Shown: positions 12,801 through 12,945 of the stretch, piece by piece
How the letters are laid out: each line of letters begins with the position of its first letter
Position numbering within the stretch: the first letter of the stretch is position 1
DNA from: Elusimicrobiota bacterium
GTDB lineage: Bacteria > Elusimicrobiota > UBA8919
Length of the DNA: 64,000 nucleotides
Reading direction: 5' to 3'
NCBI GenBank assembly: GCA_028718185.1
Contig: JAQUMH010000002.1
Coordinates: forward strand, 4,088-68,087
Notes under the pieces: model-generated
What the model was told of the DNA's origin: nothing
Databases searched by the model: none
The model's input: the letters and a program-made list of their open reading frames with translations, nothing else
Program-made: the position numbers and the translations under genes

Positions 12801-12945
12801 ATCACAGAGCGAGGGAGTTGTTGAGCAGAACTTCACGGAGTTCCGCTTAAAACATTCAGCGGAACGAGTGAGAGTGCCAGCACAAGCTGGACACGGTTCT
12901 GCGAAACAAGCTCCCGAGCGCAAATCAAGAAAATTTGCTTGCGAA
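12801..12945. repeat. about 130-bp conserved structured element, copy 1 (candidate ncRNA or MITE), upstream of glgE
   Basis: The 62-nt core gttgttgagcagaacttcacggagttccgcttaaaacattcagcggaacgagtgagagtgcc is identical to 42798-42859. It is followed by a sequence-variable but still palindromic hairpin (ccagcacaagctgg vs ccccgacgtaacgtcgggg) and by imperfect terminal inverted repeats (gagggagttgttgagcagaac / gttctgcgaaacaagctcccgag). Confidence 0.6.

Follow-up and report, generated by a model that had tools for sequence, protein, structure and literature searches.

A strand-specific three-way-junction fold in a family of inserted intergenic repeats of Elusimicrobia

Small palindromic repeats are common in well-studied Proteobacteria and barely charted in uncultured phyla. 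ERIC and Correia repeats occupy transcribed operon spacers, form size variants through internal insertions at fixed points, and act on mRNA in an orientation-dependent manner; their termini are true inverted repeats, they show TA duplications, and they are classed as MITEs (miniature inverted-repeat transposable elements). Palindrome-associated transposable elements (PATEs) of the IS200/IS605 type, which move as single strands by ‘peel and paste’, bear a short cleavage motif at the right end and leave no target duplication. Integron attC sites, 57–141 nt long, are conserved in structure and variable in sequence, and are active as folded single strands with extrahelical bases. Repetitive extragenic palindromes (REPs) of the GTAG type lie between unidirectional or convergent open reading frames (ORFs) and often supply a TAG stop codon (PMC3733652). 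Here we analyse a 64,000-nucleotide stretch of an Elusimicrobiota genome (assembly GCA_028718185.1, contig JAQUMH010000002.1, positions 4,088 to 68,087; the whole stretch is referred to as the window) and two similar elements in it, which are members of a family of small repeats not described before. We regard them as probably belonging to a clade-restricted family of non-autonomous mobile repeats, the fold of which would be under selection as a single strand.

A find_repeats-type search of the window returned an 82-nt pair at 12797–12878 and 42780–42861 with 95% identity (family D8). Both copies lie on the + strand, at the positions given in a preliminary description of this DNA, and share the identical 62-nt block it reported (gttgttgag...gagtgcc, 12817–12878 = 42800–42861; 63 nt with the preceding A). 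Copy-to-copy alignment shows likeness from CCTAATC (12797 and 42780) to a hexamer, GAGCGC or GAACGG (12921 and 42910, respectively); the end at 12945 proposed earlier for the first copy was therefore about 24 nt too far. Counted from hexamer to hexamer, the elements span 12807–12921 and 42790–42910, each with a 10-nt flank motif on the 5′ side. Pieces of the core (24 and 20 nt, up to 3 mismatches) are absent from the rest of the window, where 0 chance matches are expected. The segment after the shared block is a perfect hairpin in each copy but of different sequence (CCAGC-ACAA-GCUGG vs CCCCGACG-UAA-CGUCGGGG), and differences in the closing stem preserve G-U pairing on the + strand; both points had been anticipated.

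To define the family, one genome per species was scanned with an exact pattern. This gave 13 true copies in four Elusimicrobia metagenome-assembled genomes (MAGs); RIFOXYD2_FULL_34_15 contributed six, UBA4817 five, and the two further MAGs a single copy apiece. A metagenome scan added 7 new variants. The final set holds 22 distinct copies, as many as six of them in one genome, and draws on no fewer than five related Elusimicrobia genomes or metagenome bins (loci are referred to by L numbers). All were found via one invariant arm, P2, so that more distant relatives were missed; pattern matches at L007, L015, L024, L030, and L033–L035 were discarded as GC-rich contigs without the remainder of the element. 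Copies measure 113–121 nt between the outer ends of their hexamers and have a GC content of ~55%, against ~34% for the genome. Their range is a narrow clade, closer or more distant relatives having other repeats at the same junctions, and three viral-contig scans for phage or plasmid carriage produced one chance match and no true copy. A comparison with Rfam, proposed in the preliminary description, gave no family match: nothing in Rfam 15 matches the element in the window at the gathering score, the sole match at E ≤ 10 near copy 1 is a spurious snoRNA outside the element, and a search of 20 loci returned tRNAs only. Hammerhead, twister-sister, Y RNA, 6S, SRP, 5S, and retron non-coding RNA were rejected, as none gave an Rfam signal and the junction strands are just 0–2 nt long. 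Literature searches on Elusimicrobia repeats or non-coding RNAs, and on the neighbouring GTCATTGCGAG repeat, found nothing relevant.

The 22 distinct copies, aligned to a covariance model built from 21 copies (R1), share one fold: a tight three-way junction set on a long closing stem, P1, with arms P2 and P3 (Table 1). P1 is formed by GGGAG/CUCCC, UUGUU/AACAA, and GCAGAACU/GGUUCUGC and is interrupted by a symmetric GA/GA loop, while P2 consists of GUUCCGC/GCGGAAC on UCAC/GUGA with a GGA/GA loop between them. Standard pairs fill 93.5% of pair cells, compared with 33–50% when partners are slid by 1–3 columns; as the copies are interrelated, pair-cell counts overstate independent events. Both sides have changed at 20 of the 39 pairs, and out of 500 shuffles none matched the observed paired fraction, the number of covarying pairs, or the covariation score. 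An alignment not fitted to the model (MAFFT) gave much the same values (92.3% paired, 19/39 covarying pairs). Changes on both sides affect 12 of 20 pairs in the P1 helix and all 8 pairs of P3, an arm whose shape and bulged A are constant although at least five unrelated sequences form it. The conservation of P2 is partly by construction, since the search pattern prescribed its stem; CAUUCA in the loop and UCAC/GUGR beside the stem are conserved as well, though they lie outside the prescribed pattern. The fold is maintained by compensatory change. The earlier suggestion of structure conserved despite sequence change is thus upheld in 21–22 copies, with covariation far above that of the controls.

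The element starts and ends with the same hexamer, RARYGA (usually GAGCGA), so that its outermost blocks are direct repeats. Placed antiparallel, they pair as G.A / A.G / G-C / C-G / G.A / A.G. Standard pairing at the two middle positions is seen in 20 of the 22 copies, and several lineages have A-U in place of G-C and U-A in place of C-G, with a 5′ A3 accompanied by a 3′ U4 (Fisher P = 0.004). Because these positions co-vary as pairs, the hexamers are part of the folding unit. All three GA/GA sites stand in a pyrimidine-GA-purine context, in which tandem sheared G-A pairs are stable in both RNA and DNA. The brackets (GAGCGA/GAGCGA) and the internal UGAG/CGAA loop share the context of the CGAG tandem sheared G-A motif, for which r(GGCGAGCC)2 and d(ATGAGCGAATA)2 reportedly served as model duplexes in NMR work of 1991–1993; the DNA duplex contains GAGCGA. 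The CGAG motif is a structural one and not a genetic element: it accounts for helix closure and cannot separate RNA from DNA.

The fold is specific to one strand. Over all pairs, 50 cells hold G-U and 12 hold A-C, the internal tandem GA loop is kept in 20/22 copies, and the + strand is more stable than its complement in 22/22 copies, by 9.3 kcal/mol on average. On the opposite strand, G-U cells become C-A mismatches and G-A tandems become U-C/C-U. The G-U excess, the GA loops, and the uniform difference in stability together identify the strand written as + in the window as the one with the conserved fold, although the complement folds too (about –45 kcal/mol). Minimum free energy z-scores of the + strand against shuffled controls are –7.1 for copy 1 and –4.5 for copy 2.

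For glgE, galT, and both pilT genes, this is the antisense strand. According to Pfam, the minus-strand neighbours of the two copies encode a GlgE-like enzyme and a PilT-type ATPase, and their start codons lie 70 and 110 nt away, in keeping with the 60–110 bp given earlier. The preliminary description had stressed this position upstream of start codons, in the same orientation, but it does not produce a leader RNA, as the best-folding strand is antisense to both genes. A 5′-untranslated leader or riboswitch of glgE or pilT was rejected on the same ground; moreover, orthologues in relatives are without the element, and further copies flank unrelated genes. With the fold on the wrong strand and the element absent in orthologues, such a leader or riboswitch is ruled out, and we do not regard the elements as regulators of glgE or pilT. 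An intrinsic terminator was rejected as well, there being no hairpin plus U-run at either element: downstream of the hairpin the mRNA strand reads ...GAUUAAA/GAUUAGG, with no intrinsic-terminator U-run. Terminator scans called nothing in the copy 2 region and, near copy 1, just unrelated sites at 12985–12999 (+) and 12693–12668 (–). By eye, a T-run follows the 3′ hexamer on the + strand in a few copies, all at other loci. A scan for sigma-70-like promoters found none on the + strand upstream of either window copy.

Comparison with relatives revealed that the copies are insertions, absent from orthologous sites. The gene order CpXC – cyclophilin – (DUF2851) – PilT – PilT2 – cNMP-binding is kept in relatives. 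The PilT|PilT2 spacer measures 7 nt in L037 (88% protein identity) and 230 nt in the window, where the element directly follows the stop codon; in L039 and L041 the same spacer is 87 and 62 nt long and holds unrelated repeats. Similarly, the GalT|GlgE spacer is 14 nt in L043 vs 216 nt in the window, and the cyclophilin|DUF2851 spacer, which in the window contains a related element that we call type 2, is 0 nt in L039. At both junctions with alignable C-termini the relative ends with TAA and the window gene with TAG, and the two stop codons occupy the same codon position. The empty sites come from diverged relatives (70–88% amino-acid identity), too distant for exact junctions to be drawn.

Filled and empty sites are also reciprocal. 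One syntenic operon of three genes (A, B, and C) shows this in L004 and L018. The B–C junction holds the element in L004 and reads TAA-A-ATG in L018; at the A–B junction, L018 has a type-2 element with a nested copy, and in L004 the two genes overlap. Gene A of L018 runs into the element and terminates inside it. A type-2 element separates two tRNA-Pro genes in L028 and is absent in the close relative L014. L006 (at 4570) and L025 (at 436) have the element and the gene on its 3′ flank in common, with 87% nucleotide identity, and synteny stops exactly at the 5′ edge of the element; this break is a rearrangement breakpoint at the repeat. Two independent short-read contigs, L036 (end at 4002) and L045 (end at 3579), stop inside or beside repeats, as expected for repeated DNA. 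Since contigs of the same or related organisms end there, the repeats break up assemblies of this clade. Mobility, raised as a possibility in the preliminary description, thus gains from empty orthologous GalT|GlgE and PilT|PilT junctions, from filled and empty sites that are reciprocal, and from insertions nested in others.

The elements are modular, and one can lie within another. At 23–37 bits, R1 also matches over its full length sequences that have just the brackets and the outer stem in common with the family. The clearest such group is the 109-nt type 2, with one copy in the window (45910–46018), two in L014, and one each in L027, L028, and L006; no credible Rfam match was obtained for it. 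Its interior differs, with an internal GAGCGA, a hairpin with another tandem GA, and the conserved loop GACCUAUACCCAACAGGA, and an alignment of five sequences only shows compensatory change at 11/36 pairs. The window copy separates the genes for cyclophilin and DUF2851; it is antisense to both, and the stop codon of the cyclophilin gene is 2 nt away. Three-way-junction elements are nested in type-2-like outer stems in L003, L018, and L012. Contexts that match in other respects differ by a hairpin module of 22–25 nt (CCGAAGGRAGUCCCUUYAGGG...), which one has and the other lacks (L003 vs L018, L008 vs L013, L044 vs L045); such presence or absence was noted in four places, and the module always lies directly 3′ of GCGA and ends with RCGA/GCAA. 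In L011 (within 1868–2002), a 20-nt palindrome of the CCTGCCT...AGGCAGG type forms a hairpin inserted within P3, and variants of it occur at two intergenic sites of the window: as a mini-palindrome in the AP-endonuclease|GalT spacer (14016–14035) and in a shorter form (CCTGCCTACCGGCAGG) at 42701–42716, 75 nt from copy 2.

Table 1. Positions of the elements and their parts in the window
Feature	Position	Strand	Remarks
5′ flank motif, copy 1 (CCTAATCACA)	12797..12806	+	start of inter-copy likeness
5′ bracket hexamer GAGCGA, copy 1	12807..12812	+	consensus RARYGA at both ends of all copies
P1 5′ strand, copy 1: GGGAG, UUGUU, tandem G-A loop, GCAGAACU	12813..12832	+	
Arm P2, copy 1: UCAC-GGA-GUUCCGC, loop UUAAAACAUUCA, GCGGAAC-GA-GUGA	12833..12871	+	sequence-invariant core; same in both window copies
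Arm P3 (variable hairpin), copy 1: GUG-CCAGC-ACAA-GCUGG-A-CAC	12874..12894	+	conserved bulged A on 3′ side
P1 3′ strand, copy 1: GGUUCUGC, GA, AACAA, bulged G, CUCCC	12895..12915	+	
3′ bracket hexamer GAGCGC, copy 1	12916..12921	+	
5′ flank motif, copy 2 (CCTAATCGAA)	42780..42789	+	
Copy 2, GAGCGA ... GAACGG	42790..42910	+	108 bits to covariance model R1
Arm P2, copy 2	42816–42854	+	
Arm P3, copy 2: GUG-CCCCGACG-UAA-CGUCGGGG-A-CAAC	42857–42883	+	
Type-2 element	45910..46018	+	GAGCGA brackets, outer-stem style alike; 31 bits to R1

Insertion into intergenic DNA, a typical size, imperfect inverted repeats, and several copies would all suit a conventional cut-and-paste MITE, that is, double-stranded DNA moved by a DDE transposase (e.g. 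of the IS630/Tc1 type, with TA duplication), for which the stem would be the terminal inverted repeats. TA dinucleotides do lie a few bases outside both hexamers in most copies, and at both compared junctions the window has a TAG stop codon against TAA in relatives, which fits insertion at TA. However, TA is common by default in AT-rich spacers, too common in these flanks to count as a duplication, and the hexamers themselves were rejected as a target-site duplication because the variants at the 5′ end are not those at the 3′ end and the changes match as base pairs. The conserved blocks farthest out are direct and not inverted repeats, the interior including P3 co-varies, which an end-binding transposase does not require, and the G-U and G-A asymmetry between strands is not expected of a double-stranded substrate. 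No related insertion sequence (IS) was seen beside the copies, and nothing transposase-like was found among the genes flanking any of them. We consider this explanation improbable. The preliminary description had held a structured non-coding RNA and a novel MITE equally possible; structure and mobility have both been borne out, whereas a textbook MITE is contradicted by the paired direct-repeat ends, the co-varying interior, and the strand asymmetry; neither a clear duplication nor, beside the copies, a partner IS was found.

The orientation of the copies follows the type of gene they adjoin. Beside protein genes, 18 of 19 independent copies (both families) are antisense. In most of these, the 3′ hexamer is 0–6 nt from the stop codon of the upstream gene, and a CTA, TTA, or TCA in the 3′ flank is often that very codon; the PilT gene of the window (42911–43975, –), for example, has its TAG directly adjoining the 3′ hexamer of copy 2. 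On the other side, a TAAT(C)NNN motif stands 3–5 nt 5′ of the first hexamer in most copies, including those of other genomes; read on the gene strand it is ATTA(A)A and usually adjoins the ribosome-binding site of the next gene. Directly 5′ of tRNA genes, all five copies are sense (tRNA-Thr, Gln, Ala, Pro-GGG, and Pro-CGG), with the 3′ hexamer 3–6 nt from tRNA position +1. The association between orientation and gene type is significant (Fisher P ~2e-4, calculated on an earlier protein-gene count of 17/18). Replication direction was rejected as the cause, since in L014 and L028 both orientations occur inside one co-directional cluster. Candidate explanations are selection against a stable + strand RNA within mRNAs and an RNA stage dependent on tRNA transcripts.

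Two of the tRNA-associated loci have further features. In L001 (77–210), the stretch from tRNA-Phe to the element preceding tRNA-Thr contains the 3′ part of tRNA-Phe as two pseudo-copies in tandem, both with a GCGAAGC-loop hairpin behind them. In L011 (2003–2180), the first 12 nt of tRNA-Ala (GGGGGTGTAGCT) are duplicated around a ~150-nt insertion with other repeats, from which it follows that the element originally stood 5 nt upstream of the tRNA.

The placement between stop codon and ribosome-binding site could also be read as that of a cis-acting mRNA element on the minus (gene) strand: an intercistronic hairpin after the stop codon, REP/BIME/ERIC-like, that would stabilise the upstream cistron or tune translation or processing between cistrons, and would form a 5′-untranslated structure for glgE and pilT. 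In its favour are the orientation of 18/19 protein-gene copies, with the stop codon 0–6 nt from the hairpin foot and the ribosome-binding site just beyond, the ability of the complement to fold at about –45 kcal/mol, and the parallel with GTAG-type REPs, which likewise often supply a TAG stop codon (PMC3733652). Yet the sequence is optimised for the other strand, the mRNA strand being burdened with C-A and U-C/C-U mismatches, tRNA-adjacent copies are oppositely oriented, and the same junctions function with 7–14-nt spacers in relatives. For these reasons effects on mRNA are probably by-products and not the reason for which the fold is conserved; as a primary function, cis action is very doubtful.

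The tRNA-adjacent copies bear on a different explanation, namely that the elements are a + strand small RNA gene family, the folded three-way-junction RNA being the functional product with a function or life cycle of its own. Copies 3–6 nt 5′ of tRNA genes would be co-transcribed and released by RNase P, and the remaining ones expressed from weak antisense promoters, with a TTTAAT box 3–5 nt before the 5′ hexamer as the –10. Structure on one strand only, strong covariation, G-U pairs and G-A motifs, the conserved CAUUCA loop, and a GC content of ~55% in a ~34% GC genome are what such a family would show; the sense orientation of 5/5 tRNA-adjacent copies at 3–6 nt from +1, the conserved upstream TTTAAT, and the stronger conservation of orthologous copies than of flanking coding DNA agree with it too. 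At the window copies, however, neither a full + strand promoter upstream nor a terminator-like site was detected, copies are insertions missing from orthologous sites of close relatives, and genomes of one narrow clade carry several diverging copies along with nested chimeras. The insertions, the nested chimeras, the clade restriction, and the failure to find a promoter argue against an ordinary host small RNA gene, and we judge this explanation unlikely.

We therefore favour mobile repeats that depend on their single-stranded fold. Copies of the family have inserted where short spacers separate housekeeping genes, within a narrow group of uncultured Elusimicrobia, and conservation of the fold would stem from an element that is recognised, and then copied or moved, in the state of a folded single strand. 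Single-stranded DNA is the more likely form of the substrate compared with RNA: the likeliest scheme has it handled by an enzyme encoded elsewhere in the genome, a candidate type being HUH/tyrosine enzymes as in REP/RAYT or IS200/IS605, though an RNA intermediate is possible. The window copies would then be passengers in the galT-glgE and pilT-pilT spacers. Operon mRNA would hold the complement hairpin, weaker by ~9 kcal/mol, directly after the upstream stop codon, and this hairpin may incidentally affect mRNA 3′-end stability or translation of the neighbours.

Several observations weigh against this interpretation. No target-site duplication has been established, the flanking TA being frequent yet expected in AT-rich spacers. 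Orthologous copies are more conserved than neighbouring coding DNA (95.6% vs 87.3%, and 97.4% vs 81%), which points to constraint in place or homogenisation between copies and not to free decay. No transposase or other partner gene was found: tblastn with three approximate Y1/RAYT queries (IS200, IS608, and RAYT) gave nothing in ~350 kb, which is a small fraction of each genome and makes this a weak test. With a three-way junction, a P2 loop that does not vary, and numerous G-A motifs, the architecture looks RNA-like and is more elaborate than the hairpins of known single-stranded-DNA elements. Finally, replication-coupled transposition of single-stranded DNA does not account for an orientation that follows the type of the downstream gene.

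A bolder view, which seems to us rather unlikely, takes the three-way-junction family, type 2, and the GCGA-targeting module together as a new kind of bacterial single-strand replicator. One possibility is a substrate of an undescribed structure-specific nuclease or recombinase that cuts beside (GA)GCGA; another is a tRNA-coupled RNA element with its active copies on tRNA transcripts, from which they would be released by RNase P. If such a replicator existed, the orientation rule would reflect coupling of its life cycle to host transcripts.

The architecture of the family is unusual in its tandem G-A brackets, branched junction, and invariant arm, while the fold is well supported and strand-specific. 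Together with its relatives the family makes up a modular nesting system with a clean orientation rule tied to the type of the downstream gene, and so offers a tractable case for asking by what mechanism and which enzyme such repeats are recognised and moved, and whether this happens at the level of RNA or of single-stranded DNA. It should also be of use for following how operon junctions are reshaped through supplied stop codons, split overlapping genes, synteny breakpoints, and contig breaks in MAGs. For annotation it carries a warning: strong covariation alone is no proof of a host regulatory RNA.

Other repeats accompany the elements in the window. Between the type-2 element and the start codon of DUF2851, the spacer (45770–45880) is filled with short tandem repeats on AACGCTGATT / CTGATTAA (AATCAGCG on the gene strand). 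A 25-nt repeat that is perfectly palindromic, GCCCGCCAACGGTTCAGTGGCGGGC, occurs at 3599–3623 and 44164–44188 and in the flanks of copies in L005, L010, and L011; found in both orientations, it is a REP-like family that the RIFOXYD2 genome shares. Repeats on GTCATTGCGA ... TCGCAATGAC lie at 3589–3678, 39727–39790, 35206–35215, and 60917–61313, and a literature search on them found nothing. The copy with a minus-strand GTCATTGCGA arm at 39727–39736 reads GTCATTGCGAGGAGCAGAGCGACGAAGCAATC on the minus strand and contains GAGCGA, with GA dinucleotides beside an ATTGC/GCAAT stem; a kinship in design with the bracketed elements is possible. At 39810–39830 and 44064–44084 stands a hairpin repeat, GATTCCCAC-N3-GTGGGAAT, inside a 52-nt repeat with 87% identity (family D14). 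On a larger scale, three tandem 738-bp repeats (21488–23737; 72–78% identity) and three ~2-kb units (54040–58644; 69–78% identity), with heptamer runs of the GTAACNAGTAA type in front of each, probably represent paralogous genes or coding domains present in repeat.

With respect to described systems, integron attC sites share conservation of structure over sequence and the placement directly after the stop codon of co-directional ORFs, with the folding strand antisense to them. An attC identity was rejected: no R″/R′ core sites (RYYYAAC / GTTRRRY) are present on either strand at the two window copies, and there is neither a cassette array nor an integrase. The flanking genes are syntenic housekeeping genes adjacent to each other in relatives. 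PATEs of IS200/IS605 depend on a strand-specific folded DNA, as the family described here probably does; their insertion 3′ of a short specific sequence recalls the 22–25-nt module after GCGA, and the cleavage motif at their right end recalls the RCGA/GCAA with which that module ends. They differ in having two similar subterminal hairpins and no long pairing between left and right ends, whereas P2 and P3 are dissimilar. Their orientation follows replication direction, in contrast to the mixed orientations seen here within one gene cluster, and the co-variation of the 5′ hexamer with the 3′ hexamer makes it part of the element and not a mere target as in PATEs.

The 127-bp enterobacterial ERIC/IRU repeats and the Correia/NEMIS repeats resemble our elements in their size of ~100–150 nt and in forming one long imperfect hairpin; they are without a branched junction, G-A brackets, or a reported antisense-to-ORF, sense-to-tRNA rule, and have no sequence similarity to the family. 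The REP/BIME/REPIN-RAYT systems differ in architecture, as a 115-nt asymmetric three-way junction stands here in place of a 20–40-nt hairpin or a symmetric REP doublet. Their GTAG and CGTC tags are absent; the tag here is RARYGA, at both ends, in direct orientation, and paired via G-A. Shared features are GC-rich palindromes between unidirectional or convergent genes, mosaic modular combinations, a short conserved single-stranded tag at the hairpin foot, hairpins kept by compensatory change, repeats that often adjoin or supply stop codons, restriction to a clade, and no transposase inside the repeat. The closest analogues of the family are REP/REPIN-RAYT, ERIC-like long hairpins, and single-strand elements of the IS200/IS605 type.

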